From positions 143,817 to 207,816 of IMG/VR virus record IMGVR_UViG_3300033066_001295: 64,000 nt of DNA. The stretch is one strand, 5' to 3'. The notes under the pieces were generated by a model, which was not told the origin of the DNA, did no database searches, and saw only the letters and a list, made by a program, of their open reading frames with translations. This stretch comes from a virus. Its lineage: Duplodnaviria; Caudoviricetes. This document shows positions 4,676-26,540 of this stretch, piece after piece. The position numbers and the translations under genes were made by a program. Every line of letters starts with the position of its first letter. Position 1 is the stretch's first letter.

Positions 4676-4765
4676 TGGTCACCTAGCTCAGATTTCCACT
4701 GAGACGAAGATTTTACCTCCGGGACGTTTTAAGTGTCCTGCGTCTGGTTGTTCCGCCACTAGGTG
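4676..4765 (-). tRNA. tRNA-Leu(TAA)
   Basis: Acceptor CACCTAG/CTAGGTG-A-CCA, loop CT-TAA-AA, long variable arm. Confidence 0.85.
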
Positions 4766-4830
4766 TTGATGATTTATCCGGTAGGGGTCTGCGATGACCC
4801 CACCTATCTTTATCTTATACGTGTCACCTG

Positions 4831-5247
4831 TCATGTGATGTCTTTAATGAAAGGGAAGGAGAACTTGTCAAACACAACTGGCATGTGCAGTTTGTCCTCC
4901 ATTTTAGGAAGCACCTCAAGTTCTTCTGGTGTTATAGCCCTCCAGCACTGCTGCCCATGGTCCCACACTCTTTTCCAAAAATAAGAAGTTCTGCCAATGT
5001 AGCCATCTGGGAGGTTGTCCGTGTCGAATTTGGAATCCCACTCATACACGTCTTTGCTAGGGCTGAAAACATGCCATTGCCTCTCACCACCCATGCCTCC
5101 CCACTTGCCGTCACAGATTGAGTAAGGGTTAGCCATGTCAAGCTCATCTGATTCCTCCTTTGAGAGGAACTTGAACTTGAAGGTTAGGTCCGTAGGACCG
5201 TCCATAGGCTGGACGGTTACAAGGTCATGTGCGCTTAGAGTGCTCAT
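4831..5247 (-). CDS. small protein with N-terminal gp23 major capsid fragment
   Basis: LSAHDLVTVQPMDGPTDLTF resembles T4 gp23 LIAFDICGVQPMNSPTG. Confidence 0.55.
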   Translation of the reverse strand: MSTLSAHDLVTVQPMDGPTDLTFKFKFLSKEESDELDMANPYSICDGKWGGMGGERQWHVFSPSKDVYEWDSKFDTDNLPDGYIGRTSYFWKRVWDHGQQCWRAITPEELEVLPKMEDKLHMPVVFDKFSFPFIKDIT

Positions 5248-5429
5248 CTTCCTGCTTCTTGATGTCTTTCTTGGTGGCAATACGCTCTTTGCTCCAAAAC
5301 ACCTTTTTGAAGTCACGAAGATGTTTCCACCATTGAGGGGGTTTGGTCAACAGTCCTTTCTTTACAGTGGCCATATGATCTTGAGACGTGGAAATTCATC
5401 TGCTGAAGGGGATGGCTTGTAATCAGCCT

Positions 5430-5654
5430 TCATTTGGTCTTCAGACGGGAAGTAGATCGAACAGGTAGTTGGGTCATATCCGGCGGCAGGATCTTGATGG
5501 CCACCGTGCGCCCCAGTGTCTTCTGCACACCTGATGGAACCTTATAGGTCACATGAGTGCTCATTCTTAGCTTCTTAGCAATGTCAGCCCAAGAAACCTT
5601 TTGTTCACGAAGAGAGATGATCTGATTGATATAGCGTGATGCTGGTTTTTTCAT
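5430..5654 (-). CDS. small HTH-like protein
   Basis: IISLREQKVSWADIAKKL. Confidence 0.45.
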   Translation of the reverse strand: MKKPASRYINQIISLREQKVSWADIAKKLRMSTHVTYKVPSGVQKTLGRTVAIKILPPDMTQLPVRSTSRLKTK

Positions 5655-5880
5655 ATCAGAAAACTATGACAGCATGGCTTCAACCTGTCAAACATTTTGT
5701 TATTCCACCAAGCGGTAACTCTCCAAACTGCGAAGATTGATAAAACAGAGTCTCCAAAGAATTTGGAATACCTCATCATCTGGGGCTTCTTTGGTGATAG
5801 CAGTGGCAGCCTGAAGAACAGCCGTCTTGGCCTTCTCAAGCTCTACCTTGGCTTGGGGGGAGTTTGACATGTGCATAGAA

Positions 5881-5954
5881 TGGAGCCTCTTAACGGATTC
5901 GCACCGTTCTATCTGCGCTACGAGGGCAGAACATCGCTTCTATGTTTAAGAGGC
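5881..5954 (-). tRNA. tRNA-Thr(CGT)
   Basis: GCCTCTT/AAGAGGC-T-CCA, loop CT-CGT-AG. Confidence 0.85.
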
Positions 5955-6138
5955 ATTACTTTTTCTTTTTTGCATAACTGCTCGCACCGGATGGTGATAG
6001 CTGCTTGCAGTTTGCTCTGGGGCGACCGTAAGAATCCCTAGACTTGTCCGGTGTTACAAGCCTTCTACGCTCCTCTTTTGTAAGGGTAGCACCTTTTCGA
6101 GAGTAACTTACTAGCTCATGAATTGATCTCATAGTGTG

Positions 6139-6447
6139 TCAGGCGTAATACTCACGCCAAATAACTGGTTGTTTTTGACCGTAGATCATAGCCATAGCCT
6201 GTCGCAAAAGATTCTCACGGTCTGTATCTGACAAGGCATTGCACTCAGCCCTGTTACAACGTGCTATCTCATTCTCTGCTAGCCTCCTCAGTCTCCTCTG
6301 GTGCTTGAACCAAGCAGCCTGAGCAGCCAAAACAGTGAAGTCGATACCTGAGTTGTGGAACCATTCCACAACTTCCTTCCACGTCATACCCTCTTCCCTG
6401 AGAGTTTGAATACGTGGTATGTGATTTGAAGCTAAGTCATATGACAT
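6139..6447 (-). CDS. hypothetical protein
   Basis: 102-aa ORF directly downstream of a tRNA. Confidence 0.5.
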   Translation of the reverse strand: MSYDLASNHIPRIQTLREEGMTWKEVVEWFHNSGIDFTVLAAQAAWFKHQRRLRRLAENEIARCNRAECNALSDTDRENLLRQAMAMIYGQKQPVIWREYYA

Positions 6448-6448
6448 A

Positions 6449-6523
6449 TGGTACGCCCGGTTGGTTCTGCCCCAACTACCAAGGAATTATGAGTTCCCTG
6501 CTCTACTATTGAGCTACAAGCGC
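6449..6523 (-). tRNA. tRNA with CAT anticodon (Met or Ile2)
   Basis: GCGCTTG/CGGGCGT-A-CCA, loop CT-CAT-AA. Confidence 0.85.
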
Positions 6524-6532
6524 AAATGCAAA

Positions 6533-6648
6533 AGGAGAAAATCGGAGAGAGTAATTACCGTGCTGCCGTTACACTAAAGGCTTTCACCTTTGGGAGTCGA
6601 ACCCATCCGGTCGATAATCAGTCGAAGTAACTCTGTTCCTCGCTGCCT
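6533..6648 (-). ncRNA. YrlA/Y-RNA-like RNA 1
   Basis: CAGCGAG..GAGTTACTTC 5' motif and CTCCGATTTTCT 3' motif enclosing permuted T arm, loop-closed acceptor stem and D arm. Confidence 0.7.
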
Positions 6649-6652
6649 ATGC

Positions 6653-6729
6653 TGGTCAGGTTAATGGGATTCGCACCCATGGTCTCTTCGTCCCGAACGA
6701 AGCGTGATACTAGGCTTCACTATAACCTG
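6653..6729 (-). tRNA. tRNA-Pro(CGG)
   Basis: CAGGTTA/TAACCTG-A-CCA, loop TT-CGG-GA. Confidence 0.9.
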
Positions 6730-6736
6730 TTAAATA

Positions 6737-6890
6737 TGTCAGAGAAAATTGAAGAGCGGTATTTTTCGGTGCTCTACTATTAAGCTATAGTGGAATTGAA
6801 ATCTCGATCATGAGACTTCAATTCCACCAAGGGGAATTGCACACCCTACACCCGTCTTGAATGAAGTAACGCTTTTTCTCGCTGCTGACA
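6737..6890 (-). ncRNA. YrlA/Y-RNA-like RNA 2
   Basis: Same terminal motifs; T arm, about 18-bp closed acceptor hairpin, D arm. Confidence 0.7.
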
Positions 6891-6891
6891 C

Positions 6892-6968
6892 TGGCGTTCC
6901 TGAGAGGAATTGCACCCCCATCTTTCGCGTTCGATGCGCGAAGCTCTAGTCTGTTAAGCTACAGGAAC
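6892..6968 (-). tRNA. tRNA-Arg(TCG)
   Basis: GTTCCTG/CAGGAAC-G-CCA, loop CA-TCG-AA (A33). Confidence 0.8.
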
Positions 6969-6969
6969 A

Positions 6970-7425
6970 TTAACTTTCACCGACGTATGTCACGCCACAG
7001 GCGTTACACACATATTTTGAAGAATCGCCATTCGGTGGATGACGAAAAACATTGCAGCCACAGTCACACCGGAATGACTGTCCGCCAGAAAGCCTCACCA
7101 TTCTGTCCACGTCAGGATCAGCCCAGTTGGCTACCTTCTCAGGCACAGAACGCTGGGTTCTCAGTTCAAACAAGCCTTTGAGGTCAGACTCCTGTTCCAT
7201 GATCAATCGAGCATAAAAGGCACGATGGTTATTGCAGAGTTTGAAGTCAGGATCAGTTGTGCTGAGTCCTACCTCCCATCTAACAAGCTCATAGATCATG
7301 CTAATACCAAGCTTGGTCTTGCCACCCTTGGCTTTCACCCAGTCACGGGCAAAACCAACAAGAAGCTCATAGACCTTTGGGTTCTCTTTGTGGAACTTCT
7401 GGAACTCTTTTTCAAGCTTTGACAT
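6970..7425 (-). CDS. hypothetical phage protein with C-terminal Zn ribbon
   Basis: FHKENPKVYE...FKLCNNHRAFYARL and CDCGC...CNAC. Confidence 0.6.
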   Translation of the reverse strand: MSKLEKEFQKFHKENPKVYELLVGFARDWVKAKGGKTKLGISMIYELVRWEVGLSTTDPDFKLCNNHRAFYARLIMEQESDLKGLFELRTQRSVPEKVANWADPDVDRMVRLSGGQSFRCDCGCNVFRHPPNGDSSKYVCNACGVTYVGES

Positions 7426-7496
7426 TAGTTGACTATAACTAATACAAAACTCCTGTCAAATTGTTTTGAAAAGTCCGTTGAGTGTATGTATTTCTT

Positions 7497-8851: not shown

Positions 8852-9023
8852 ACCAAATAGGTAGGTGTGTGATGGTATTCCCAAGTGGAATTGCACCACT
8901 TCGAGCACCTTCGGAGAGTGCCATGCCTCTATTACATCATGGGAACTGGTGCTCACGACTGGAGTTGCACCAGCACTGCCACGCTTCTGAGACGTGTGCC
9001 TCCTGCTATTGGGCTACGTGAGC

Positions 9024-9954: not shown

Positions 9955-10029
9955 TGGACGCCAGTAAGGGGATCGCACCCTTCTAGTTCGTTTTGCAGAC
10001 GACTCCGCACTCTAGCCCGGTCACTGGCG
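9955..10029 (-). tRNA. tRNA-Cys(GCA)
   Basis: CGCCAGT/ACTGGCG-T-CCA, loop CT-GCA-AA. Confidence 0.85.
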
Positions 10030-10037: not shown

Positions 10038-10112
10038 TGGAGCCACCAATGGGATTCGCGCCCATCTCTTCCGAATACCAATCGGATACATCGCTGTCTA
10101 TGCTTTGGCGGC
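10038..10112 (-). tRNA. tRNA-Thr(GGT)
   Basis: GCCGCCA/TGGTGGC-T-CCA, loop TT-GGT-AT. Confidence 0.9.
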
Positions 10113-11379: not shown

Positions 11380-11454
11380 TGGAAGCCCATGTTGGTAACG
11401 CTCCAATCTTACTCCGGGTCAAAGCCGGATGCATTGCTTCTATGCTAATGGGCT
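11380..11454 (-). tRNA. tRNA-Gln(TTG)
   Basis: AGCCCAT/ATGGGCT-T-CCA, loop CT-TTG-AC. Confidence 0.85.
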
Positions 11455-11647
11455 AAAAAGGTAAATAGCCGGTTACTATTCCGGCGTCCCTGAACCCGCT
11501 TGCTACAGGCTGGACAGTACTCCTTTTGGGCAAGCAGCCCCCGCAACTTCCCTGCGGACGGTATGGTGAGAAACCCTCTTTGCAAAAGGAGAGCGATAAC
11601 ACCCATGACACACCTTCGTGTGTTTCGTCCTTTTTGGACTCATCAGA

Positions 11648-11795
11648 TGGGAGTCAAAGAAGTGGAATCACACATTTGCACAGCACATGTTGCACCACTC
11701 ACGCTGGGTAGGACAGTCTTCACATCCAGCAGGCTCACCAAGGGGGACTGACTCTCCCATAGGTGGCACCTCGCGTCTTATTCCGCCACTTTGAT
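11648..11795 (-). ncRNA. expanded tRNA-like RNA
   Basis: Leu-like 5' end TCAAAG-TGGCGGAATAAGACGC, 3' CTTTGA; T stem GAGTGG/CCACTT with an insertion. Confidence 0.4.
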
Positions 11796-11796: not shown

Positions 11797-11871
11797 TGGC
11801 AGCCATGGTAGGATTTGCACCCACTTAAAACACCTTCAGAGGGTGTCGCATATCTATTCTGCCACATGGCT
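11797..11871 (-). tRNA. tRNA-Gln(CTG)
   Basis: AGCCATG/CATGGCT-G-CCA, loop CT-CTG-AA. Confidence 0.9.
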
Positions 11872-12649: not shown

Positions 12650-12895
12650 TCAGTTAATTTTTTCTTCACCCCGGTACGCCATGAGCCATGAAGAGCAAGT
12701 TGGCGAGCACATCCGATTGCCACTGATTGAGCTTTTTGGGTGTTTCACATCGTCTTCGGTCAATCGAGGGTCTTCCCACTCCTTTTCGAGCATTCTCACC
12801 CCACACTTCGGACATCTACGCCAGACGTGTATTGAAGGTGGAAAGTCATCTTCGTATTTGGAAAACATTGGTACCAGTGAGTGGACCCGCCCCAC
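12650..12895 (-). CDS. small Zn-finger protein
   Basis: CPKC...CSPTC. Confidence 0.4.
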   Translation of the reverse strand: MGRVHSLVPMFSKYEDDFPPSIHVWRRCPKCGVRMLEKEWEDPRLTEDDVKHPKSSISGNRMCSPTCSSWLMAYRGEEKIN

Positions 12896-12922
12896 AGTGC
12901 AAAGGCTTATGAAACCCCGCCC

Positions 12923-13333
12923 CTACTTCAGGACACTGGCATTGATTCTTTGCATTCTGGCTGGCGCAGCAGCGAGAACTCTCGGGCTGATGTGCTTTTC
13001 ACAGGACTGCCTCAAAGCACCTTTTTGCTCAAGAGAGAGCAAACTCACAGATGGCCCAAGGTGTTTTAGCTGAGGAAAGCTAATGTCTTCTGAAAGGACA
13101 TAACCAGCCTCCCTGAGAACCTCTTCAGCAGGCTTGTAAGGTGTCCCCATTCCAGCAATTCGCCTGATGTCACGGATGACCTCCCAGTCGATCTCTGTTT
13201 GGAGCAAAAGGGCAAGCCACTCAGAGAAGTCGGTGATGATGATCTTCTTGGGAACAGGTGCTACAGCCGGAAGAGGCACGACAGCAGCTACTGCCACGCC
13301 CATGAGTCTCTTGAAAAAATCGCGCCTGTCCAT
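12923..13333 (-). CDS. Tat-like signal plus gp23 major capsid fragment
   Basis: MDRRDFFK plus hydrophobic stretch; LQTEIDWEVIRDIRRIA and EAGYV resemble gp23-type MCP motifs. Confidence 0.55.
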   Translation of the reverse strand: MDRRDFFKRLMGVAVAAVVPLPAVAPVPKKIIITDFSEWLALLLQTEIDWEVIRDIRRIAGMGTPYKPAEEVLREAGYVLSEDISFPQLKHLGPSVSLLSLEQKGALRQSCEKHISPRVLAAAPARMQRINASVLK

Positions 13334-13675: not shown

Positions 13676-13752
13676 TGGTCAGGCTAGAGGGATTCGCACC
13701 CTCGGTCTCTTGCACCCCATGCAAGCGTGATACTAAGCTTCACCATAGCCTG
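13676..13752 (-). tRNA. tRNA-Pro(GGG)
   Basis: CAGGCTA/TAGCCTG-A-CCA, loop AT-GGG-GT. Confidence 0.9.
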
Positions 13753-13888: not shown

Positions 13889-13962
13889 TGGTGGAACCGG
13901 ACGGTAACCCTCCGTCGTTTGAGACATGCCATGCCCCCGTTCTAGTTTTGAACTACGATCCC
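13889..13962 (-). tRNA. tRNA-Ala(GGC)
   Basis: GGGATCG/CGGTTCC-A-CCA (G3:U70), loop AT-GGC-AT. Confidence 0.85.
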
Positions 13963-14010
13963 ATAAAGTACCCGTTCTGGTGCGCTTCTTTGAGAGGCGT
14001 AACGGGTTTT

Positions 14011-14347: not shown

Positions 14348-14440
14348 TGGCGGATAATCGAGGACTTGCACCCCAAGCTCACTTTCGTGGCTCAATCCGA
14401 TTTCGAGTCGGCACCGGCTCGCTTGTCCGGTTGATCATCC
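14348..14440 (-). tRNA. tRNA-Ser(CGA), 8/4 fold
   Basis: GGATGATC/GATTATCC-G-CCA, loop CT-CGA-AA, long variable arm. Confidence 0.85.
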
Positions 14441-15322: not shown

Positions 15323-15414
15323 TGGCGGGTCAAGGAGGACTTGCACCCCAAACCACTTTCGTGGCTCCAATTGCTTTCCAAGCAACGCTGACTCGCTTGT
15401 TCAGTTCTTGACCC
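15323..15414 (-). tRNA. tRNA-Ser(GGA), 8/4 fold
   Basis: GGGTCAAG/CTTGACCC-G-CCA, loop TT-GGA-AA. Confidence 0.85.
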
Positions 15415-15418: not shown

Positions 15419-15493
15419 TGGTGGAGAATAACGGTTCCGCCCCGTTGACTTCGCGTTGCAAGCGCAATGTGTTACTATTAGCACCAATCCCCC
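15419..15493 (-). tRNA. tRNA-Ala(TGC)
   Basis: GGGGGAT/ATTCTCC-A-CCA, loop CT-TGC-AA. Confidence 0.9.
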
Positions 15494-15633: not shown

Positions 15634-15708
15634 TGGCCGCTTGAACTGGTAACGCTCCAGTCTTCTCTCCTTTTCAGGGAGGCACCCATCTATCTAGGTC
15701 ATCAAGCG
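15634..15708 (-). tRNA. tRNA-Phe(GAA)
   Basis: CGCTTGA/TCAAGCG-G-CCA, loop CT-GAA-AA. Confidence 0.85.
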
Positions 15709-15724: not shown

Positions 15725-15798
15725 TGGAGGGCCATGTCGGTAACGCTCCGACTTAGTCTGCTTGGAAGGCAGTTGCACTACTTTTGTGCTAATGACCC
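15725..15798 (-). tRNA. tRNA-Gly(TCC)
   Basis: GGGTCAT/ATGGCCC-T-CCA, loop CT-TCC-AA. Confidence 0.9.
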
Positions 15799-16293: not shown

Positions 16294-16449
16294 GTCAGGG
16301 GAGGCTGGAATCGAACCAGCTACATGGTTACTCTCTTGAACCACCAGTACCATACCCATGCTGTCATGCTCTGGGTTACCGCAGACTTAGCAGTGGTTTA
16401 CGTTGCCACCCTGCGGGCCAAAGCAGCCTTTCCAATTGGATACTCCCCG
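16294..16449 (-). ncRNA. tRNA-Pro-derived RNA with anticodon-loop and variable-arm insertions
   Basis: CGGGGAG-TA-TCCAATTGG 5' end, canonical GCTGG-TTCGATT-CCAGC T arm, TGCTTTGG[insert]GAGCA. Confidence 0.6.
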
Positions 16450-16457: not shown

Positions 16458-16531
16458 TGGTAGCCCGTGAGGGTGTTGCTCCCCCGATTTCTGGATGTAA
16501 ACCAGACGTGATACTGTTTCACCAACAGGCC
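16458..16531 (-). tRNA. tRNA-Val(TAC)
   Basis: GGCCTGT/ACGGGCT-A-CCA, loop TT-TAC-AT. Confidence 0.9.
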
Positions 16532-16726: not shown

Positions 16727-16800
16727 GCGACATATTGCTTTTACGCAACGTGGTGTGGTAGGCGACATATTGCTTTTACGCAACGTGGTGTGGTAGGCGA
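16727..16800. repeat. perfect 35-bp tandem duplication
   Basis: gcgacatattgcttttacgcaacgtggtgtggtag twice, then gcga. Confidence 0.9.
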
Positions 16801-16865
16801 TGCAGGTGCTGCCCCTGCCACTTCCACAATGTCAATGTGGCTATCTACTGCTGATATAATCGCCC
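16791..16865 (-). tRNA. tRNA-Val(GAC)
   Basis: GGGCGAT/ATCGCCT-A-CCA, loop TT-GAC-AT. Confidence 0.9.
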
Positions 16866-17038: not shown

Positions 17039-17113
17039 TGGTGGGTGTGGTTGGTAATGCTCCAACTACTTCTGCAATGTGAATGCAGCACTCTACTTTT
17101 GAGTTACACACCC
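17039..17113 (-). tRNA. tRNA-Val(CAC)
   Basis: GGGTGTG/CACACCC-A-CCA, loop TT-CAC-AT. Confidence 0.9.
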
Positions 17114-17606: not shown

Positions 17607-17690
17607 TGGTGCGCAGTGTGGGTAACGCTCCCACTTGGCCGAAACGACGGGTTTACAGTCCGCCCCACATCTTTAGTGGTCTAACTGCGC
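17607..17690 (-). tRNA. tRNA-Tyr(GTA)
   Basis: GCGCAGT/ACTGCGC-A-CCA, loop CT-GTA-AA. Confidence 0.9.
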
Positions 17691-17961: not shown

Positions 17962-18035
17962 TGGCATGTCCTGTAGGATTCGCACCCACGCAAGAAGTTT
18001 TGGAGGCTTCCGTGCTACTGTTACACCAAGGACAT
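17962..18035 (-). tRNA. tRNA-Trp(CCA)
   Basis: ATGTCCT/AGGACAT-G-CCA, loop CT-CCA-AA. Confidence 0.9.
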
Positions 18036-18042: not shown

Positions 18043-18441
18043 TCACAATCGAAAACTATCAAAGTGACCACCTGCCACGTTAACGTCACGACCGCACTGG
18101 CGAATGTACTCCAGAGCTTGACCCATGTCCAGCTTGATTTGCTTGCTTACAAGGTAGAGAGCAACGACATAGACAGACCGTGAACGGCCTTCGTGGCAAT
18201 GAACCAGCACCTTGGCACCCGGATCAGCACAGATGGCATCGAGAATGTTCAATGCTGCTGCATAAAGGGCTGGATGGTTTGCACCGTCCACCATGCCAAC
18301 ATGAAAGTGGTTCACCCTGTGTGCCCATCCAACTCTCTGGTCTAGGTCATGGGCACAGTTGAGGATATGAGTGATCCCGTCTTGTGGTTGTGAAGCATCA
18401 CGACTGTTACCGATCCATATTTGTGGCGTGATCTGGTTCAT
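18043..18441 (-). CDS. dual-specificity protein phosphatase
   Basis: QITPQIWIGN, ITHILNCA, KVLVHCHEGRSRS (HCx5R). Confidence 0.9.
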   Translation of the reverse strand: MNQITPQIWIGNSRDASQPQDGITHILNCAHDLDQRVGWAHRVNHFHVGMVDGANHPALYAAALNILDAICADPGAKVLVHCHEGRSRSVYVVALYLVSKQIKLDMGQALEYIRQCGRDVNVAGGHFDSFRL

Positions 18442-18550: not shown

Positions 18551-18625
18551 TGGTACCCTTATCAGGAGTCGCACCTGAACTTAGACTTTAGGAGAATCCC
18601 GTGCGGTCTATTACACTATAAGGGC
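18551..18625 (-). tRNA. tRNA-Arg(CCT)
   Basis: GCCCTTA/TAAGGGT-A-CCA, loop CT-CCT-AA. Confidence 0.9.
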
Positions 18626-18631: not shown

Positions 18632-18707
18632 TGGCACTCGTGACAAGAGTTGCACTTGTACCTTACTCCTTAGAAGGGAGCCATGCTGTCTATTACACCA
18701 CACGAGC
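18632..18707 (-). tRNA. tRNA-Arg(TCT)
   Basis: GCTCGTG/CACGAGT-G-CCA, loop CT-TCT-AA. Confidence 0.9.
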
Positions 18708-18762
18708 TTAACTGAGATCAGGGTGCAACTCAATGAAAACTTTGCACCCTGTATCTATTTGT

Positions 18763-19197
18763 ATGAGAGAAAAAATTTTGGAACTAAAAAAGCAAAACCC
18801 GGTATGGGGCTACAAGCGTATTGCAAAAAAATTAGGCTGTAGCCACAATACAGTAAAGTACCACCTTCTGACGACTGTCAGAAAAACCTACGCTACTAGG
18901 CAACAAGAAAGACGTGCTATGGTGATGATGTCACTGAAAATGCTGCACGGTGGCTGCTGTGTAAAATGTGGTTACAGCAAAGCCATTACAGCCCTTCAGT
19001 TCCATCACAGAGACCCAAGTACAAAAGTTAAAATGGTATCACAGCTTATCCGTGAACACAATTTTACTGCTGCCCAAGAAGAAGCTGATAAGTGTGACCT
19101 TCTGTGTGCTAACTGCCATTTTGAGGTTCATGAGCAAGCCGACAAAACCTACATAAAATGGGCACAGCCTAGTCTGTTCGAGCCACAGGAGCATTAA
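18763..19197 (+). CDS. HTH plus HNH endonuclease
   Basis: WGYKRIAKKLGCSHNTV; CVKCGY..ALQFHHRDP..KCDLLCANCHFEVH. Confidence 0.85.
   Translation: MREKILELKKQNPVWGYKRIAKKLGCSHNTVKYHLLTTVRKTYATRQQERRAMVMMSLKMLHGGCCVKCGYSKAITALQFHHRDPSTKVKMVSQLIREHNFTAAQEEADKCDLLCANCHFEVHEQADKTYIKWAQPSLFEPQEH
19159..19192 (-). pseudogene. 5' half of a tRNA truncated at the HNH gene
   Basis: GCTCCTG-TG-GCTC-GAACAGACTA-GGC-TGTGCC; no matching 3' half seen. Confidence 0.45.
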
Positions 19198-20154: not shown

Positions 20155-20229
20155 TGGTATCCGTAACAGGAGTCGCACCTGTGTCTCAGCCTTCGCAAAG
20201 CTGAATTCTATCTACTGAACTATACGGAC
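20155..20229 (-). tRNA. tRNA-Arg(GCG)
   Basis: GTCCGTA/TACGGAT-A-CCA, loop TT-GCG-AA. Confidence 0.9.
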
Positions 20230-20279
20230 ATTAAAAAACCGGCCAAAATTGTGCATCATAGAGAGGCATGGTAGGTAAA

Positions 20280-20356
20280 TGGTTGCGGGAGTTGGATTTG
20301 CACCAACGCATACCAGCTTATGAGGCTGGTGACTTAAACTGCTTGTCGATCCCGCA
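20280..20356 (-). tRNA. tRNA-Met(CAT)
   Basis: TGCGGGA/TCCCGCA-A-CCA, loop CT-CAT-AA. Confidence 0.9.
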
Positions 20357-20362: not shown

Positions 20363-20438
20363 TGGTGCTCCAAGAGAGACTTGCACTCTCGTTGCCCAGA
20401 TTAAGAGTCTGGTGTAATAGCTTCTATACGATTGGAGC
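20363..20438 (-). tRNA. tRNA-Lys(CTT)
   Basis: GCTCCAA/TTGGAGC-A-CCA, loop CT-CTT-AA. Confidence 0.9.
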
Positions 20439-20442: not shown

Positions 20443-20517
20443 TGGCTCCCCATTTTGGACTCGCACCAAACTCACACAGCTTAACAGGCTGGCCGCACAC
20501 TCGGTGCGTTACGGGGA
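20443..20517 (-). tRNA. tRNA-Asn(GTT)
   Basis: TCCCCGT/ATGGGGA-G-CCA, loop CT-GTT-AA. Confidence 0.9.
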
Positions 20518-20565: not shown

Positions 20566-21081
20566 ATGACTAAAAAATGTTGTAGGTGTAAGATTGAGAA
20601 ATCAGTTACTGATTTTGGCAAAATGTCTTCTGCCAAAGATGGTCTTCAAAGTAGGTGTAAGCCTTGTAATAGGGCTGTTGCTCTGGACTACTCAAGAAAA
20701 TTCAAGGAGCGGAGCTACACTAACACAAAAGAACGGAAGAAGCGGATTACCACAGCTATATCAGAGGTGAAGCGACGTGCTGGATGTGCTCTATGCACAG
20801 AAAGTGACCCTGTATGCTTGGTATTCCACCACCTTGACCCAACTCAAAAGGAGCTTCAGGTAAATGGTGCAACAAACCCATCTGTCCAAAGAATAACCCT
20901 AGAGGCAGTCAAATGTGAGGTAGTTTGCTGCAATTGTCACCGCAAGGTCCACTTTGGGAACATGGTCATAGACTCAAGGCGTGATATAGACTTGTCCCCT
21001 ATAGAGATGTTAGTGCCTAGAAAGGGACGAACAAAAAGGATGGTCCCTCCTGACGGTAACGCTCCGTCTTCTGCGAGTTAA
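20566..21081 (+). CDS. HNH endonuclease with N-terminal Zn finger
   Basis: KKCCRCKIEK..DGLQSRCKPC; CALC..LVFHHLDP..KCEVVCCNCHRKVH. Confidence 0.85.
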   Translation: MTKKCCRCKIEKSVTDFGKMSSAKDGLQSRCKPCNRAVALDYSRKFKERSYTNTKERKKRITTAISEVKRRAGCALCTESDPVCLVFHHLDPTQKELQVNGATNPSVQRITLEAVKCEVVCCNCHRKVHFGNMVIDSRRDIDLSPIEMLVPRKGRTKRMVPPDGNAPSSAS

Positions 21082-21115
21082 AAGCTCGCTGCTATCACTA
21101 AAAAGCTTAGGAGGG
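21041..21115 (-). tRNA. tRNA-Lys(TTT)
   Basis: CCCTCCT/AGGAGGG-A-CCA, loop CT-TTT-AA. Confidence 0.9.
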
Positions 21116-21121: not shown

Positions 21122-21228
21122 TTGAGTAGAAGCATCCGGCACAGTTGATCAGCTTCTCTTGACAGTCCGGTGCCCGGTGATCATCTGTCATCTCTGTCTG
21201 GTTGTCAGACATGCCTGACTTGCTACAA
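21122..21228 (-). ncRNA. unassigned compact RNA with crossing helices
   Basis: TGACAG/CTGTCA, TGATCA/TGATCA, GGCAC/GTGCC, TGTCTG/CAGACA. Confidence 0.4.
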
Positions 21229-21250
21229 TTGCAAAACAGTATGTATTGAC

Positions 21251-21850
21251 ATGAATATAGAACTAACTCAATTGACACAAGCAGTAAGCAATTCAGTGTC
21301 CTTGTCGAGTGCGCTGAAACTGCTCAAAAAGCCTGTAAACGGTAGTTACATGAAGAAACTCAAGAACCTCATCGAAGAGGCTAACCTTGACACAGGCCAT
21401 TTTACTGAACTAGGAGTAAAAAAGGTCCGCCCAAAGGAGTACAGGAAGTGCAAGCACTGCAATTCAGAGTTCTTGGTGAAATCTGACAACCTAGACAAAC
21501 AGTGCTGCTCATATTCCTGCTCAAACAAATCAAAGCTAAGAGGACTAGCTGGTGTCAAAACCACCTATCGGTCTATCTGCTTTGAGCATCACCAGCACAA
21601 GTGCTGTGTCTGCCCAGAGACTAATGTTGTAGCTGTCCATCACATGGACGGTAACCACAAAAACAACACCCCCTCTAACTTAGTGCCCTTGTGCCCAACT
21701 CATCACACCTATGTTCACAGTAAAAAACTGAAACACTTGGTAGATGGCACAATCAAGGACTACTTAACCAAATGGTCGGCTATGCCGGACTTGCACCGTG
21801 ACTCAACGCCCCAAACGTCGCGTGTTACTATTACACCACATAACCGATAA
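21251..21850 (+). CDS. HNH endonuclease
   Basis: CKHC..CCSYSC; CCVC..VAVHHMDGNHKNNTPSNLVPLCPTHH. Confidence 0.9.
   Translation: MNIELTQLTQAVSNSVSLSSALKLLKKPVNGSYMKKLKNLIEEANLDTGHFTELGVKKVRPKEYRKCKHCNSEFLVKSDNLDKQCCSYSCSNKSKLRGLAGVKTTYRSICFEHHQHKCCVCPETNVVAVHHMDGNHKNNTPSNLVPLCPTHHTYVHSKKLKHLVDGTIKDYLTKWSAMPDLHRDSTPQTSRVTITPHNR
21773..21846 (-). tRNA. tRNA-Pro(TGG)
   Basis: CGGTTATG/CATAGCCG-A-CCA, loop TT-TGG-GG. Confidence 0.85.
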
Positions 21851-22129: not shown

Positions 22130-22203
22130 TGGCATCCCCGACTGGACTCGCACCAGCTTTTCCTGTTTGAGAGACAGGGTTCCTACTCATAGAAGACAGG
22201 GAC
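22130..22203 (-). tRNA. tRNA-Glu(CTC)
   Basis: GTCCCTG/CGGGGAT-G-CCA, loop CT-CTC-AA. Confidence 0.9.
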
Positions 22204-22325: not shown

Positions 22326-22402
22326 TGGCAACCGTGTTGGGAGTCCCACCCAATACATGTCTGGTTGAAAGCCAGACCTCTCCAGTCTTTGAATTCACGG
22401 TC
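22326..22402 (-). tRNA. tRNA-Glu(TTC), atypical
   Basis: GACCGTG/CACGGTT-G-CCA, loop CT-TTC-AA. Confidence 0.8.
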
Positions 22403-22410: not shown

Positions 22411-22485
22411 TGGCACTCCATGCGAGGCTCGCACTCACTTTGCCGCCTTGAAAGGGCGGAATCCTAACTCATAGATGAATGGAGT
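22411..22485 (-). tRNA. tRNA-Glu(TTC)
   Basis: ACTCCAT/ATGGAGT-G-CCA, loop CT-TTC-AA. Confidence 0.9.
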
Positions 22486-22832: not shown

Positions 22833-22905
22833 TGGTAGCAGGACGTGGAGTCTCACCACGATGAACAAGCTTATGAGGCTCGTTGGGTTAATCAACCTTC
22901 CTGCC
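22833..22905 (-). tRNA. tRNA-Met(CAT), atypical (7-bp anticodon stem, small D loop)
   Basis: GGCAGGA/TCCTGCT-A-CCA, loop CT-CAT-AA. Confidence 0.75.
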
Positions 22906-23021: not shown

Positions 23022-23098
23022 TGGTGCTCACAGAGGGAGTTGCACCCTCACTGCCATGGTCCTTAGCCATGTGCCTCCTGCTGTTGGGCTATGTGAGC
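23022..23098 (-). tRNA. tRNA-Leu(AAG), short variable arm
   Basis: GCTCACA/TGTGAGC-A-CCA, loop CT-AAG-GA. Confidence 0.85.
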
Positions 23099-23175: not shown

Positions 23176-23251
23176 TGGAGCCTCGCTGAGGACTTGCACC
23201 CCACGTATCCTGCTTACAAAACAGGTGCATCGCTGTCTATGCTTCCGAGGC
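23176..23251 (-). tRNA. tRNA-Thr(TGT)
   Basis: GCCTCG/CGAGGC-T-CCA, loop TT-TGT-AA. Confidence 0.85.
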
Positions 23252-23406: not shown

Positions 23407-23490
23407 TGGTAGGCGTGGCGAGACTTGCACTCGCATGAATTTCTTCGCTGGTTCCTAAAACCAGTGCGGCTGCTATTACGCCACACGCCC
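23407..23490 (-). tRNA. tRNA-Leu(TAG)
   Basis: GGGCGTG/CACGCCT-A-CCA, loop TT-TAG-GA. Confidence 0.9.
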
Positions 23491-23497
23491 ATAAAAA

Positions 23498-23565
23498 AGG
23501 TGGTGTTCTGTCTATTAAACTACCAGTCTCTCGACCGTGTCGGAGTTGCACCCACATTTCCACCT
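23498..23565 (-). ncRNA. stand-alone circularly permuted tRNA module
   Basis: AGGTGG, T arm, acceptor closed by GAGA, D arm, CCACCT. Confidence 0.7.
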
Positions 23566-23567
23566 AC

Positions 23568-23661
23568 TGGCGGATGGCAACGGACTTGCACCGTGTGCCC
23601 CACTAAAGAGACACGATCTGTTTAGCAAACAGTCCCGGCACGCTTGTCCGGTTTACCATCC
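23568..23661 (-). tRNA. tRNA-Ser(GCT), 8/4 fold
   Basis: GGATGGTA/TGCCATCC-G-CCA, loop TT-GCT-AA. Confidence 0.85.
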
Positions 23662-23669
23662 ATAAAGAC

Positions 23670-23809
23670 TCAGGAAGAAAATCGAAGAGGGAGTGTTATC
23701 ACACCGTGTAACGGGTGCTGCTCGACCGTTGAGCGTATTCTCTAATTTTGGGCAGAGGATACTGGAGTTGAACCAGTTGTTGAAGTAGCCCTGTTTCTCG
23801 CTGTCCTGA
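23670..23809 (-). ncRNA. YrlA/Y-RNA-like RNA 4
   Basis: Terminal motifs plus ACTGG-TTCAACT-CCAGT, closed acceptor, GCTC-AACGGTC-GAGC. Confidence 0.7.
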
Positions 23810-23858
23810 TGGCGGATGGCAGAGGATTCACACCTCCTGCACAAGTAAATGACCACCC
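23810..23858 (-). ncRNA. tRNA minihelix-like RNA
   Basis: GGGTGGT/GCCATCC-G-CCA plus GGAGG-TGTGAAT-CCTCT joined by a 14-nt linker. Confidence 0.6.
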
Positions 23859-23865
23859 ATAATTA

Positions 23866-23992
23866 ACAAGAGAAAGTTGAGTAGAGTATGACAGCTTTCG
23901 CTGTTCGGTTGGAGTCGCACCAACTAATGTCTGATTTGTAGTCAAATGCCCAACTGGTAGGCGTCGAAGTAACTCTGGCTCTCGCTGCTTGT
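23866..23992 (-). ncRNA. YrlA/Y-RNA-like RNA 5
   Basis: Terminal motifs enclosing D-like, anticodon-like (CT-ACA-AA) and T arms in normal order. Confidence 0.65.
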
Positions 23993-23993
23993 C

Positions 23994-24061
23994 TGGAGCC
24001 GGTGGTCACGGTTATTATGGCAAGCCTTTCGGCTATTCCAGTTCACAACGTGACCCCCAGC
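23994..24061 (-). ncRNA. CCA-ended hairpin RNA
   Basis: GCTGGGG-GTCACG / CGTGAC-CACCGGC-T-CCA with apical AGCC-GAAA-GGCT. Confidence 0.5.
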
Positions 24062-24068
24062 ATTAGAT

Positions 24069-24152
24069 GAAGAAAGAAAATCGGAGAGAGGTATTAATGG
24101 CACGAGGCCATTTTCGTATTCATCGAAGTAACTCTTTTCCTCGCTGTTCTTC
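24069..24152 (-). ncRNA. YrlA/Y-RNA-like RNA 6 (minimal)
   Basis: CAGCGAGGAAAAGAGTTACTTCG..CTCTCTCCGATTTTCT with only a small hairpin. Confidence 0.65.
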
Positions 24153-24227
24153 TGGAGCGATCAACGGGACTTGCACCCGTAGTCCCATCCTTGGCAAGGA
24201 TGTGCTTTTCTATTAAGCTATGACCGC
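24153..24227 (-). tRNA. tRNA-Gly(GCC)
   Basis: GCGGTCA/TGATCGC-T-CCA, loop TT-GCC-AA. Confidence 0.9.
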
Positions 24228-24233
24228 ATTAAA

Positions 24234-24308
24234 TGGGGTGTCTGACGGGTTACGCTCCCGCACTGCCTTCTTCACAGGAAGGGATGCTACTACTACAATA
24301 CAGACACC
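24234..24308 (-). tRNA. tRNA-His(GTG)
   Basis: G-1 plus GTGTCTG/CAGACAC-C-CCA, loop CT-GTG-AA. Confidence 0.9.
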
Positions 24309-24463
24309 ATCTTATTGATGGAAATGAATGAACATCCAGTCGCCAACTGGAATCACGTTACTGTGGCAGGATACCACTGCCGATCTCGTGACATCTTGTT
24401 TCTAGTGCGGCTTCGCTATGTTCAATGGGGCTTAGCAAGGCCATGCCTAACACTAAGCATAAA

Positions 24464-24540
24464 TGGCGAAGCGTACGGGTTTTGCACCCGTCATGTCCAC
24501 CTTGACAGGGTGGTGGCTCCTCTAAGTTGCCCTACGCTCC
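24464..24540 (-). tRNA. tRNA-Asp(GTC)
   Basis: GGAGCGT/ACGCTTC-G-CCA, loop CT-GTC-AA. Confidence 0.9.
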
Positions 24541-25006
24541 TTTTTTTGTTACCCCATGTTGGTGTTTGAGAGTGACAATTCGGACAGATATATGCCAAAT
24601 TTTCAGCCCTATCATCAATGGGGTTACCGTTTAAGTGGTCTATCTGAAGTGTGAGTTCTTTACCCATCCACTCGGACAAACCGCACTTACTACATGAGTA
24701 TTCTCGCCCAATCTCATTTAGTGCATTTCTGAGATACTTTGTACTGACCCTTGCACCTGACGTTCGGTAAATGAGCCTCTCACTTGGTGGCAGCTTATTC
24801 CAAGAGGTTTTACCTCTATTTGAAGCGAGACCTAAAAAATGAGATATGTCTATGCTATTTTCGACTATCTTACGCTTTATGAAGCGGTATATCTCACTAC
24901 CATTGGGGTTACCACCTAAAGCAGAAATTAACTGCCTCAGAGACTTTGAAGATTTAGCAGCTTCACGGATAGACTCAGCATCGTACTTCAGCTTTCTCAT
25001 AGTCAT
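24491..25006 (-). CDS. HNH endonuclease
   Basis: CSKCGLSEWMGKELTLQIDHLNGNPIDDRAENLAYICPNCHSQT. Confidence 0.9.
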   Translation of the reverse strand: MTMRKLKYDAESIREAAKSSKSLRQLISALGGNPNGSEIYRFIKRKIVENSIDISHFLGLASNRGKTSWNKLPPSERLIYRTSGARVSTKYLRNALNEIGREYSCSKCGLSEWMGKELTLQIDHLNGNPIDDRAENLAYICPNCHSQTPTWGNKKRSVGQLRGATTLSRWT

Positions 25007-25036
25007 ACATACTGACTACGCGATCAGCATATGTGA

Positions 25037-25942
25037 TCAAGCTTTTTTGCTATTATCCCACTGCTTGTAGCGTTCACGCTTTTGAGCCGGTGTCATGCCA
25101 GCAAGCTCTTTCTGAACATCGGCATACGCCTTGTTGCCCTGAGCCTTGGCTGCACGCTGTTTGGCGTACTTGGCATCAATATCAGCAAACCCTTTCTTCA
25201 CCCTAGCGTCACGAATGGTCTTGTCAGGGTCCACATACGTGGATGCCTTGGGCTGCTGAAGGGTGGCAGGAACAGCTTGGTTAGACTTGGCACCCCAAGG
25301 GTTGGCCTTGTCCTTCTGAGACTGGAGATAAGCTTGTCCCTGCGGAGTGTTCAAAGTTGCCTGTGACGCTGCGATCTGCTCTGGAGTCCAGTTGGAAGGT
25401 CCGACTGTTGGCTTGGCAGGAGCGGGAGCGGCTACAGGGGCAGGAGCTTGAGCGGCAGGTGTCGGAGCGGCGGCTACTTGGGGTGCCGGAGCGGCAGCAG
25501 GAGCTTGAGCAGCAGGTGCTGGAGTGCCCATAGCCTGAAGCTTGGCAGCAGGAGGTAGAGCAAGAAATGCTTCCGCCTCTTTTTTAACAGAGGCCAATTC
25601 TTGACCTAGCTGCTGATATTTTGGACCCCACTTCTGAACAATGAAATTATTGATGGCGTCAGCCGTTGGACCACCAGCAGGGGCTTGAGCAGCAGGTGCC
25701 GGAGCTTGGGGTGCCGGAGCTTGGGGTGCCGGAGCGGCAGCCGGAGCTTGTGGGGCAGGCTGGTTGGCGTTAGGGTCAACAACATCGTTGTACCCACCTG
25801 TAACATCGTGATATGCGCCAGAAACAGCGTTCCCTACAGCGGAGGCTGCACTACCAATACCTTGGCGAAGTCCACCAGCTAGTTGCCCAGCTTTGCGAAA
25901 GAACCCAGTTCCAGCCTCAAAAAGGTCGATGAACGATGACAT
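25037..25942 (-). CDS. Ala/Pro/Gln-rich protein, probable internal head protein
   Basis: MSSFIDLFEA N-terminus, APQAPA repeats, TATCTATT upstream. Confidence 0.6.
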   Translation of the reverse strand: MSSFIDLFEAGTGFFRKAGQLAGGLRQGIGSAASAVGNAVSGAYHDVTGGYNDVVDPNANQPAPQAPAAAPAPQAPAPQAPAPAAQAPAGGPTADAINNFIVQKWGPKYQQLGQELASVKKEAEAFLALPPAAKLQAMGTPAPAAQAPAAAPAPQVAAAPTPAAQAPAPVAAPAPAKPTVGPSNWTPEQIAASQATLNTPQGQAYLQSQKDKANPWGAKSNQAVPATLQQPKASTYVDPDKTIRDARVKKGFADIDAKYAKQRAAKAQGNKAYADVQKELAGMTPAQKRERYKQWDNSKKA

Positions 25943-25966
25943 ATCAATAGATACTCAAAGAAAGAT

Positions 25967-26097
25967 TTCAAAGGGGAAGGATTTACACCTCCACACCGGT
26001 CTCTGTCAGCACACCGGTAAGCACCTAGTAATTACTTTCGGTAGCCGTAGCACCCTACTCGCTGTACAGTTGTCTTGAGCTTTGCTTTACCTCTGAA
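25967..26097 (-). ncRNA. expanded tRNA-like RNA
   Basis: TTCAGAGG/CCTTTGAA stem, T arm GGAGG-TGTAAAT-CCTTC, small D-like arm, expanded core. Confidence 0.5.
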
Positions 26098-26191
26098 TGG
26101 CGGATGACTGAGGAATCGAACCCCATGCCGGTCTCCCGGACATACTCCACTTTCAAGGCGGCTGCTGGGAACACACCCAACTAAATCATCC
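26098..26191 (-). tRNA. tRNA-Ser(TGA), 8/4 fold with 6-bp D stem
   Basis: GGATGATT/AGTCATCC-G-CCA, loop CT-TGA-AA. Confidence 0.85.
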
Positions 26192-26416
26192 AAAAAATTG
26201 CTTTTGCCGTGCCTCAGCAGGACACGAGCGAGTCCTCACTCAGAGCCACCTTTTGTGGCCCTGTTTACGGTCATAAACATAGCTTCTGCCACAACTACAG
26301 GTAACAGTAGTTCCCTTTTTCACCTTCATACTTATTCATATCAATCAGGCTGGTGAGCAGCCCTTTCTCCATGCCTATTGTGCAAATGGAATGTGGTAGA
26401 GCTAACTTTGCTCTCA

Positions 26417-26470
26417 CTACATTTTGTGCTAACTGCCATGGTGAAGTCCATGAAGAACTGGAAATGGTCC
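26417..26470 (+). pseudogene. HNH endonuclease remnant
   Basis: Translates to ..CANCHGEVHEELEM, similar to the C-terminus of the 18763 HNH; no intact ORF. Confidence 0.5.
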
Positions 26471-26540
26471 GTGTAGTTGGTAACGCTCCAACCTGAAACA
26501 CGCTTATCGGGCGTGCGCTTCTCTTCTCAGCCATACACGG
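26465..26540 (-). tRNA. tRNA-Ile(GAT)
   Basis: CCGTGTA/TACACGG-A-CCA, loop CC-GAT-AA. Confidence 0.85.

Follow-up and report, generated by a model that had tools for sequence, protein, structure and literature searches.

The tRNA island and its elbow bases

The stretch of DNA considered here, which we call the window, is the final 64 kb (64,000 nucleotides) of the 207,816-bp IMG/VR record IMGVR_UViG_3300033066_001295, a tailed phage genome with a completeness of 94% (CheckV) and a GC content of 47.5%. Between positions 4676 and 26540 of the window lies an island of 44 cloverleaf tRNA genes, all on the minus strand, in which the bases that join the D loop to the T loop at the tRNA elbow depart nearly throughout from the canonical G18-U55 contact, T-loop position 55 being G and D-loop position 18 being A. 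All 44 genes encode their own CCA end, every one of the 20 amino acids is represented, and no credible tRNAs were found elsewhere in the genome. Over these 22 kb neighbouring genes are separated by 0 to 1904 nt, and the intervals hold open reading frames (ORFs) and other RNAs; the genes for Leu(CAG) and Arg(CCG) are contiguous without any spacer. Every one of them parses into a 7-bp acceptor stem, a 5-bp T stem with a 7-nt T loop, and a 5-bp anticodon stem with a 7-nt loop containing U33, with stems that are perfect or near-perfect; the exception among the parsed tRNAs is the gene at 22833, whose D arm is poor.

The set of 44 is the union of ARAGORN runs at several thresholds, Rfam, a scanner of our own that requires nothing beyond the three arms (D, anticodon and T), an acceptor stem of 7 bp and a terminal CCA, and two long-arm Ser tRNAs, Ser(CGA) and Ser(GCT), that were added by hand from further T-arm and acceptor/CCA scans. 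Our structure-only scanner gave 34 matches, all of them on the minus strand. An initial reading made from the letters alone (the sequence-only reading) had counted 43 tRNAs, against 44 in the combined union, and its expectation that standard scanners would under-call these genes was borne out: default ARAGORN reports 22 of the 44 (32-36 at lowered thresholds), and the Rfam model RF00005 reports 20 at its gathering threshold (29 bits, default filters) and 25 with lax filters.

At position 55 there is a G in 43 of the 44 genes and a T in one, Ser(TGA). The T loops fall into three classes: T/C-G-C-R-A-N-Y (class 1; 31 tRNAs, variants with G56 or A56 counted in), A-G-C-R-T-N-A (class 2; 10 tRNAs, 9 of them with T58) and G-G-C-R-G-N-A (class 3; 3 tRNAs), while the G53:C61 pair and a purine at position 57 are kept in all 44. 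In the D loop, A18 is present in each of the 15 tRNAs whose numbering is unambiguous (7-nt D loop, 4-bp D stem), and it is followed by G19 except for one C19, which is paired with G56, and the aberrant CAT tRNA. This numbering is supported independently, because A20, the classic ArgRS element, directly follows A-G in all five Arg tRNAs. Position 56 is C in 40 tRNAs, whose D loops offer an A-G dinucleotide, A in the aberrant CAT tRNA, and G in three (Leu-TAA, Ala-GGC and the Glu gene at 22326), all of which have A-C in the D loop and hence C19. Positions 54 and 58 also change together, as T/A in 30 tRNAs, A/T in 9 and G/G in 3. Compared with the RF00005 tRNA, the set lacks the G18-U55 contact (TTC T loop, GG D loop) and retains the Watson-Crick G19-C56 pair, swapped to C19-G56 in three.

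Tabulation thus upheld what the sequence-only reading had claimed about the elbow: G55 nearly throughout in three T-loop types with Ser(TGA) as the sole TTC tRNA, D loops with AG in place of GG, G56 accompanied by AC, and A54 paired with T58 (9 of 10). One further claim, that elements retaining TTC also retain the D-loop GG, stands only in part. Ser(TGA) does have GG at the first two positions of its D loop, and TTC hairpins do exist, but that GG is out of register for 18/19, and Ser(TGA) therefore has no clean canonical elbow. The hairpins are two perfect TTC T arms that lack CCA and lie outside any tRNA, and these are possibly modules of Y-like RNAs. Another near-universal base, U8 (the 4-thiouridine, or s4U8, site), is kept in 31 of the 44 tRNAs and replaced in 13, with A8 in all three Thr tRNAs.

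In other respects these are tRNAs of standard families. Like the canonical RF00005 tRNAs of bacteria and phages (T4-like phages and jumbo-phage clusters), they are clustered and share the cloverleaf, arm lengths, U33, R57, G53:C61, G19-C56, identity elements and CCA; they differ in A18/G55 (43/44), in altered U54/A58 (14) and in the replaced U8. Bacterial identity elements are found as G3:U70 in both Ala tRNAs, C1:G72 with A73 in Pro, A1:U72 with G73 in Trp, U73 in Gly and Cys, an encoded G-1:C73 in His, A20 in all five Arg tRNAs, and long arms in Ser and Tyr. The exception is the pair Leu(CAG) and Leu(AAG), which have a 5-nt variable loop in place of the long arm of bacterial tRNA-Leu. When the D loop, T loop and anticodon were masked and the island tRNAs compared with 903 canonical (U55) tRNAs from other loci, for 23 of 42 the nearest neighbour was specific for the same amino acid, against 2.4 expected, which argues that many separate tRNA families were converted and not that one odd gene was duplicated. 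Nor did we find a sign of common origin with the G55 tRNAs of other phages, to which the island tRNAs show no excess closeness (7 observed, 8.2 expected), so that many separate conversions are needed.

With Ser(GCT) counted, CTC and ATA are the only codons without a strict cognate tRNA. Judged from the anticodons, all sense codons can be read, given that one of the three tRNAs with a CAT anticodon is of the lysidine type (ATA) and that Leu(AAG) reads CTC through A34 or I34. The set includes Arg(GCG), where bacteria usually have the TadA-dependent Arg(ACG). Outside the 44 there are four defective or partial tRNA-like elements, of which three end in CCA (Table 1).

Table 1. Positions of the island tRNA genes, of tRNA-like elements and of neighbouring features in the window (T-loop classes as defined in the text; -ps and -ps90 are ARAGORN settings)
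Feature	Positions	Strand	Characteristics	Found by
tRNA-Leu(TAA)	4676..4765	-	long variable arm; G55, G56 with A18-C19	ARAGORN -ps, parse
tRNA-Thr(CGT)	5881..5954	-	class 1, A18/G55, A8	own scanner only, parse
tRNA-Met/Ile2(CAT)	6449..6523	-	class 3 (G54, G55, G58), A18	Rfam 47.4 bits, own scanner
tRNA-Pro(CGG)	6653..6729	-	class 1, A18/G55; C1:G72, A73	default ARAGORN, Rfam
tRNA-Arg(TCG)	6892..6968	-	class 1, A18/G55, A20	default ARAGORN, Rfam
tRNA-Arg(CCG)	8873..8946	-	class 1, A18/G55, A20; abuts Leu(CAG)	default ARAGORN
tRNA-Leu(CAG)	8947..9023	-	5-nt variable loop; class 1, G55	default ARAGORN, Rfam
tRNA-Cys(GCA)	9955..10029	-	class 1, G55; U73	ARAGORN -ps
tRNA-Thr(GGT)	10038..10112	-	C54, G55, A58; A18; A8	Rfam 44.4 bits (lax filters), own scanner
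tRNA-Gln(TTG)	11380..11454	-	class 2 (A54, G55, T58), A18	default ARAGORN
Type I hammerhead-like match	11601..11652	-	between two Gln tRNAs; 31.1 bits (gathering score 34)	
tRNA-Gln(CTG)	11797..11871	-	class 1, A18/G55; A1:U72, G73	default ARAGORN, Rfam
tRNA-like, 72 nt	12869..12940	-	CAT loop, class 3-like T loop, CCA; no recognisable D arm; outside the 44	
tRNA-Pro(GGG)	13676..13752	-	class 1, A18/G55	default ARAGORN, Rfam
tRNA-Ala(GGC)	13889..13962	-	class 2, G56 with A18-C19; G3:U70	own scanner only
abiF RNA motif (RF03085)	13970..14006	-	37.9 bits (gathering score 37); directly upstream of tRNA-Ala(GGC)	
tRNA-Ser(CGA)	14348..14440	-	long arm; class 1, G55	T-arm scan + fold
tRNA-Ser(GGA)	15323..15414	-	long arm; class 1, G55	ARAGORN -ps
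tRNA-Ala(TGC)	15419..15493	-	class 3, G55; G3:U70	Rfam 36.1 bits (lax filters), own scanner
tRNA-Phe(GAA)	15634..15708	-	class 2, A18/G55	ARAGORN -ps90, own scanner
tRNA-Gly(TCC)	15725..15798	-	class 2, A18/G55; U73	Rfam, lowered-threshold ARAGORN
TTC T-arm hairpin	16304..16320	-	no CCA, outside any tRNA	
tRNA-Val(TAC)	16458..16531	-	A54, G55, A58; A18	Rfam, lowered-threshold ARAGORN
tRNA-Val(GAC)	16791..16865	-	class 3, A18/G55	own scanner only
tRNA-Val(CAC)	17039..17113	-	class 2, A18/G55	Rfam, lowered-threshold ARAGORN
tRNA-Tyr(GTA)	17607..17690	-	12-nt variable region; class 2, G55	ARAGORN -ps90
tRNA-Trp(CCA)	17962..18035	-	class 1, A18/G55; A1:U72, G73	Rfam, lowered-threshold ARAGORN
Protein with phosphatase domain	18043..18441	-	dual-specificity (Cys) phosphatase domain (DSPc, E = 3.9e-13)	
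tRNA-Arg(CCT)	18551..18625	-	class 1, A18/G55, A20	default ARAGORN, Rfam
tRNA-Arg(TCT)	18632..18707	-	class 1, A18/G55, A20	default ARAGORN, Rfam
ORF	18733..19197	+	homologues in other tRNA-rich phage loci	
tRNA-Arg(GCG)	20155..20229	-	class 1, A18/G55, A20	default ARAGORN, Rfam
Second abiF copy	20238..20275	-	weaker, 26.7 bits; between Met and Arg(GCG) tRNAs	
tRNA-Met(CAT)	20280..20356	-	class 1, G55; U1:A72	default ARAGORN, Rfam
tRNA-Lys(CTT)	20363..20438	-	class 1, G55	default ARAGORN, Rfam
tRNA-Asn(GTT)	20443..20517	-	class 1, A18/G55; G73	ARAGORN -ps, own scanner
ORF	20566..21081	+	homologues in other tRNA-rich phage loci	
tRNA-Lys(TTT)	21041..21115	-	class 2, G55	default ARAGORN
ORF	21170..21850	+	homologues in other tRNA-rich phage loci	
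tRNA-Pro(TGG)	21773..21846	-	class 1, G55; weaker T stem	default ARAGORN, Rfam (lax filters)
tRNA-Glu(CTC)	22130..22203	-	class 1, A18/G55	default ARAGORN, Rfam
tRNA-Glu(TTC) copy 1	22326..22402	-	G55, G56 with A18-C19	own scanner only
tRNA-Glu(TTC) copy 2	22411..22485	-	class 1, G55	default ARAGORN
Aberrant tRNA(CAT)	22833..22905	-	good acceptor, anticodon and T arms, poor D arm; G55, A56	ARAGORN in other register, re-parsed
tRNA-Leu(AAG)	23022..23098	-	short variable loop; class 1, G55	default ARAGORN, Rfam
tRNA-Thr(TGT)	23176..23251	-	class 1, A18/G55, A8	Rfam 34.3 bits, own scanner
tRNA-like, Leu CAA-like anticodon loop	23258..23342	-	good acceptor, T arm (G55), CCA; bloated D region; outside the 44	
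tRNA-Leu(TAG)	23407..23490	-	long arm; class 1, G55	default ARAGORN, Rfam
tRNA-Ser(GCT)	23568..23661	-	long arm; class 1, G55; closes AGY gap	relaxed acceptor/T-arm/CCA scan + fold
TTC T-arm hairpin	23761..23777	-	no CCA, outside any tRNA	
Acceptor + T-arm minihelix, 49 nt	23810..23858	-	CCA; T loop G55, T56; outside the 44	
Partial tRNA-like element	23908..23924	-	G55-type T arm	
tRNA-Gly(GCC)	24153..24227	-	class 1, A18/G55; U73	default ARAGORN, Rfam 62.6 bits
tRNA-His(GTG)	24234..24307	-	class 2, A18/G55; encoded G-1 (24308) opposite C73	Rfam (lax filters), lowered-threshold ARAGORN
tRNA-Asp(GTC)	24464..24540	-	class 1, G55; G73	default ARAGORN
ORF	24491..25006	-	homologues in other tRNA-rich phage loci; weak HNH match	
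tRNA-Ser(TGA)	26098..26191	-	only T55 (TTC); atypical D arm	ARAGORN; Rfam: sub-threshold tRNA-Sec match only
tRNA-Ile(GAT)	26465..26540	-	class 2, G55; first island gene	ARAGORN -ps
Ligase-like gene	27985..28542	-	adjoins the tRNA island	

The A18/G55 state in other phages and in cellular genomes

A search for A18-G19 combined with a G55 T loop and CCA matched at least 118 viral contigs, and in the loci among the matches listed ARAGORN found 987 tRNAs. For the covariation count the 116 tRNAs that themselves fit the search pattern were left out, and only those with forced numbering (7-nt D loops) were kept. Among these the 18/55 states were A18/G55 in 16, G18/U55 in 158, G18/C55 in 6 and U18/G55 in 2, while A18/U55 and G18/G55 were both found 0 times (Fisher p = 6e-23 for the A18/G55 covariation). 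The absence of the intermediate states is explicable because in a deep mutagenesis study of yeast no single change of G18-U55 was tolerated, each one killing the suppressor tRNA (PMC4117946). In the 42 listed loci that carry 10 or more tRNAs, one or more of them with G55, G55 tRNAs make up a median of 8%, and against 98% in the present phage only one other locus is near-converted (L043, 94%), the rest reaching at most 36%. Since ARAGORN overlooks genes of this kind, the true shares in those loci may be higher. Set against that median, chance is excluded as the origin of the pattern in the island. By a wide margin, the commonest converted tRNA among the listed phage contigs is tRNA(CAT), with 69 G55 against 39 U55 genes.

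The same pattern, applied to one genome per prokaryotic species, matched at least 120 loci, and the matches listed comprise tRNA-Phe of SAR11 (at least 39 genomes), tRNA-Cys and a tRNA-Met of the Candidate Phyla Radiation (CPR), and tRNA clusters of Verrucomicrobia. SAR11 counts among the most abundant bacteria of the ocean, and the 1.3-Mb genome of its free-living member Pelagibacter HIMB1412 (G001) encodes 32 tRNAs by Rfam and ARAGORN, one per anticodon; 29 of them keep TTC, and the other three, Phe(GAA), His(GTG) and Val(GAC) (loci L257 and L268), have A18/G55. Since this genome has no other Phe or His tRNA, the elbow must serve ordinary bacterial translation there without any phage factor. 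The SAR11 and phage genes share A18/G55, and their His T loops are identical over seven bases, but only 3 of the 32 are converted in SAR11, the sequences are otherwise unrelated, and the SAR11 tRNA-His has A73 without G-1 where that of the phage has G-1:C73.

A different arrangement is seen in a 6.5-Mb metagenome-assembled genome (MAG) of Verrucomicrobiaceae (G002), whose dispersed tRNAs are canonical (28 of 28 sampled), whereas a 12-gene array at a contig end (C35:308-2397; loci L131, L293, L300 and L301) is almost wholly A18/G55. This array has in common with the phage a short-arm Leu(CAG), which also occurs in a second Verrucomicrobia array (L174), the choice of Arg(GCG), and an identical Phe D loop. 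Its Asn(GTT) apparently has G55 together with GG in the D loop, which would be an unusual departure from the pairing rule. The elbow is thus not confined to phages, and where it is massed it forms accessory sets beside a canonical core. Such sets recall the long, horizontally transferred L-arrays of bacteria (e.g. the Anabaena trn operon; PMC8421152), in that both place dozens of tRNA genes in an accessory block linked to homing endonucleases, but an L-array is an uninterrupted operon of up to ~43 genes in a bacterial genome or plasmid, whereas the phage genes are interspersed with protein genes and small RNAs; the elbow is not discussed in the L-array paper.

Two broader claims of the sequence-only reading can be assessed against these data. 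That selection maintains a functional alternative elbow agrees with the covariation of 18/55, 19/56 and 54/58, the intact stems, the CCA ends in 44/44, the identity elements and the SAR11 Phe and His tRNAs. That the elbow is a phage adaptation has to be narrowed, as it also occurs in SAR11, CPR and Verrucomicrobia; what remains special to the phage is its near-total conversion (43/44). Taken together, these features lead us to give a probability of roughly three in four to the reading that the island supplies a full set of functional tRNAs, sufficient in itself and based on an alternative elbow.

A proposed structural reading of the elbow and possible reasons for converting a whole set

In the canonical elbow, residue 18 intercalates between T-loop positions 4 and 5 and touches position 2, the contact of G18 with pseudouridine 55 (Psi55) being a single hydrogen bond, while the 19-56 pair is exposed and stacked upon by partners (PMC4810234). 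The T loops of flavin mononucleotide (FMN) and cobalamin riboswitches follow the consensus (YGNRA)NY and receive a near-invariant adenosine between positions 4 and 5, which is held to the sugar edge of the position-2 G by two hydrogen bonds; the T loop of tRNA, with its U at position 2, stands apart from this pattern, and the loops tabulated include one from rRNA that reads G-G-A-A-G (bioRxiv 10.1101/2022.12.26.521914). Of the phage tRNAs, 31 of 44 read Y54-G55-N56-R57-A58, and nearly all of those have Y60, as in the generic T loop. Because class 1 equals the riboswitch consensus, class 3 resembles the rRNA form and residue 18 is an adenosine, we infer that the set uses the general T-loop grammar, with A18 intercalating and contacting G55 while the outer face is kept; the strict covariation of A18 with G55 supports this contact. 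The T loop would then fold as a generic U-G-N-R-A and not as the special U-U-C-R-A of tRNA; A18, offered by the D loop in place of G18, would slide between residues 57 and 58 and hydrogen-bond the sugar edge of G55; and the outer G19-C56 pair would remain as the stacking surface for the ribosome, RNase P and other partners. With that face kept, the tRNAs would be expected to behave as ordinary ones do in processing, in charging by host synthetases and on the ribosome. The closest solved likeness is the T-loop/receptor of the env8 aptamer (PDB 4FRG), whose (YGNRA)NY loop fits class 1 and whose adenosine-G contact resembles A18/G55; in the phage the partner is a D loop with an added 19-56 pair, and equivalence in three dimensions would follow by analogy.

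Why a phage would convert a whole set is a separate matter, on which we hold views of lower confidence. Without U55 there is no TruB site, without G18 no TrmH site, and in the third of the set that lacks U54 no TrmA site, and the U54-U55-C56 motif is gone from the converted tRNAs. The same motif is read by an immune nuclease: CbCash, a Schlafen nuclease associated with type III CRISPR, cleaves 28 tRNAs of E. coli on the 5' side of U55, its cleavage is abolished by single changes of U54 or U55, and the authors of this 2026 study left open whether it targets phage tRNAs (PMC13462974). The likeliest benefit in our view, though we would place it well short of even odds, is that the wholesale conversion is a counter-defence by which the tRNA pool survives a T-loop tRNase of the host or of a rival, whether of the CbCash/Schlafen kind or a toxin that cuts at T54/Psi55. 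Host tRNAs would be destroyed, the phage pool spared, and translation would continue. If the danger came from an enzyme that recognises something common to all tRNAs, both the conversion of every isoacceptor and the completeness of the set would be accounted for. There is a functional analogy in phage T5, whose tRNAs evade anticodon nucleases by changes in the anticodon loop (PMC10264068); T5 tRNAs also act against PARIS and Retron-Eco7. Both phages would be altered at a site read by defence nucleases; in T5 this is the anticodon loop of particular tRNAs, with experimental support, and here it would be the elbow of an entire set, judged from its bases.

Several observations weigh against an island that is both self-contained and proof against such nucleases. 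TCA is the most used Ser codon (30%) and is read by the sole TTC tRNA, Ser(TGA), so that resistance to a T-loop nuclease would be incomplete, and T54 is kept in 30 of the 44 tRNAs. Individual core tRNAs of SAR11 and CPR bacteria have this elbow too, which means that it can exist without any logic of phage defence. None of the three CAT tRNAs has the standard features of an initiator, neither three G-C pairs nor a C1xA72 mismatch, and no recognisable Schlafen, RtcB, CCA-adding enzyme or TruB was found in the phage. Finally, a ligase-like gene that adjoins the island was rejected as a tRNA-repair enzyme, since its product folds as the adenylation domain of a DNA ligase and not as an RNA ligase, and so gives no support to a tRNA-repair context.

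The lost bases can also be viewed as lost modification sites (U55 in 43/44, G18 in ~43/44, U54 in 14/44, U8 in 13/44), and a possible if doubtful explanation is that the elbow is stable without Psi55, 5-methyluridine 54 (m5U54), 2'-O-methylguanosine 18 (Gm18) or s4U8, so that a large burst of phage tRNAs would be active at once even where TruB, TrmA, TrmH and ThiI are limiting or absent. The replacement of TadA-dependent Arg(ACG) by Arg(GCG), the encoded CCA that makes a CCA-adding step unnecessary, the two hydrogen bonds of the riboswitch A-to-G contact against one for G18-Psi55, and the presence of the elbow in streamlined genomes (SAR11, CPR) all fit such independence. Against it, one CAT tRNA would still need lysidine, Leu(AAG) carries A34, and SAR11 itself keeps TTC in 29 of 32 tRNAs that are presumably still modified; and the pressure seems weak, TruB, TrmA and TrmH being non-essential in model bacteria. 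A history without any present-day advantage strikes us as rather unlikely. Here A18/G55 would be as fit as G18/U55 but separated from it by a fitness valley, and the lineage would have taken its tRNAs from a mobile pool (phage sets, L-type arrays) already rich in this state, or made them uniform by gene conversion, in keeping with the scatter of the state over SAR11 and CPR core tRNAs, Verrucomicrobia arrays and many phages, with the oddities shared with the Verrucomicrobiaceae array (short-arm Leu(CAG), Arg(GCG), Phe D loop), and with the homing-endonuclease-like genes of the island, some of which have homologues in other tRNA-rich loci. Against it, near-total conversion is rare (median 8% in the 42 listed loci, one at 94%), the tRNAs belong to standard amino-acid families, and their lack of closeness to other phages' G55 tRNAs (7 against 8.2 expected) calls for many conversions.

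We regard it as very unlikely that the elbow marks self from non-self, with the phage itself destroying or inactivating host tRNAs through their canonical T loop, sparing its own set and taking over translation completely. The coverage of all amino acids and essentially all codons is what a full replacement of the pool needs, and most phage genes are without assigned function, yet a search for a Schlafen domain found none, Pfam and PHROG scans of ~40 proteins gave no candidate nuclease, Ser(TGA) of the phage itself carries TTC in its T loop, and there is no recognisable initiator-like tRNA. Most improbable of all, in our estimate, is that these are not translation tRNAs but pseudogenes in decay, marks that punctuate the processing of neighbouring small RNAs, or decoys or sponges for defence proteins that bind tRNA. 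About half of them do fall below the thresholds of standard models, several clearly defective tRNA-like pieces lie among the genes, and staphylococcal tRNA-Gly species without the canonical elbow bases (NP1, NP2 and NEW) work off the ribosome (PMC4574755). Those, however, are of Gly only, bind EF-Tu weakly and have a role in the cell wall, and although they share with the phage set the lack of G18 and U55 they also lack G19 and C56 (having U18/U19 or C18/U19), which the phage set keeps. Near-perfect stems in 44 genes with 0 matches on the opposite strand, about one gene per needed anticodon, correct identity elements, covarying elbow pairs and the dependence of SAR11 on A18/G55 tRNAs all speak for a working set.

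Genomic setting and significance

By its protein matches (a gp23-like fragment, a baseplate wedge protein, and DnaB-like and DEAD-box helicases) the virus is a very divergent tailed phage. Searches for a close relative gave 0 matches with megablast and blastn against 50,697 phage records, and none when viral contigs were scanned with protein patterns of two island proteins. One island protein has homologues 83-88% identical in ENA and JGI assemblies, and a metagenome scan for the loci of such homologues gave 0 loci. BLAST of two island tRNAs against cultured phages had a canonical cyanophage tRNA-Arg as its sole match, and the best identity of the island tRNAs to any sampled tRNA is ~0.76. As to the host, what hints there are suggest a HisRS of non-alphaproteobacterial type and tRNA arrays like those of Verrucomicrobia. 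The phage also encodes Ro60 (TROVE), 12 kb upstream of the window. A scan of the island for promoters and terminators showed no excess over shuffled sequences.

Several neighbouring features complete the picture (Table 1). The ligase-like gene encodes a 186-aa OB-less nucleotidyltransferase with a K-x-N-G motif I, and its AlphaFold model (predicted local distance difference test, pLDDT, 89) is best matched by the adenylation domains of ATP-dependent DNA ligases (African swine fever virus, archaeal, LigD; TMq 0.62-0.66); it has one homologue, from a Chthoniobacter MAG. Four island ORFs have homologues 35-57% identical in other tRNA-rich phage loci and are probably mobile genes of the homing-endonuclease type. 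In addition, a phosphatase-domain protein is encoded in mid-island, and two abiF motifs and a hammerhead-like match lie between tRNA genes.

We found no description of an A18/G55 elbow in the literature searched, which included reviews of non-canonical tRNAs and of T-loop modification and covered few subscription journals. Within that literature, A18/G55 is an undescribed alternative design of the tRNA core; the observation is solid and its structural reading well grounded. The G18-Psi55 contact is taught as one of the invariant locks of the L shape, and the design of tRNA finders depends on it. In light of the present set the invariant becomes one of two solutions, the second being that of other structured RNAs. 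As standard annotation misses about half of such genes, the tRNA repertoires of phages and arrays are undercounted. The set also bears on the question left open by the authors of the CbCash study, namely whether phage tRNAs evade immune nucleases that cut the T loop, and a natural elbow that is independent of modification, and possibly resistant to nucleases, would be useful for engineered tRNAs. If true, counter-defence would give this alternative core design a function, and it would be the first case in nature in which immunity directed at tRNAs is evaded through the elbow and not through the anticodon loop.

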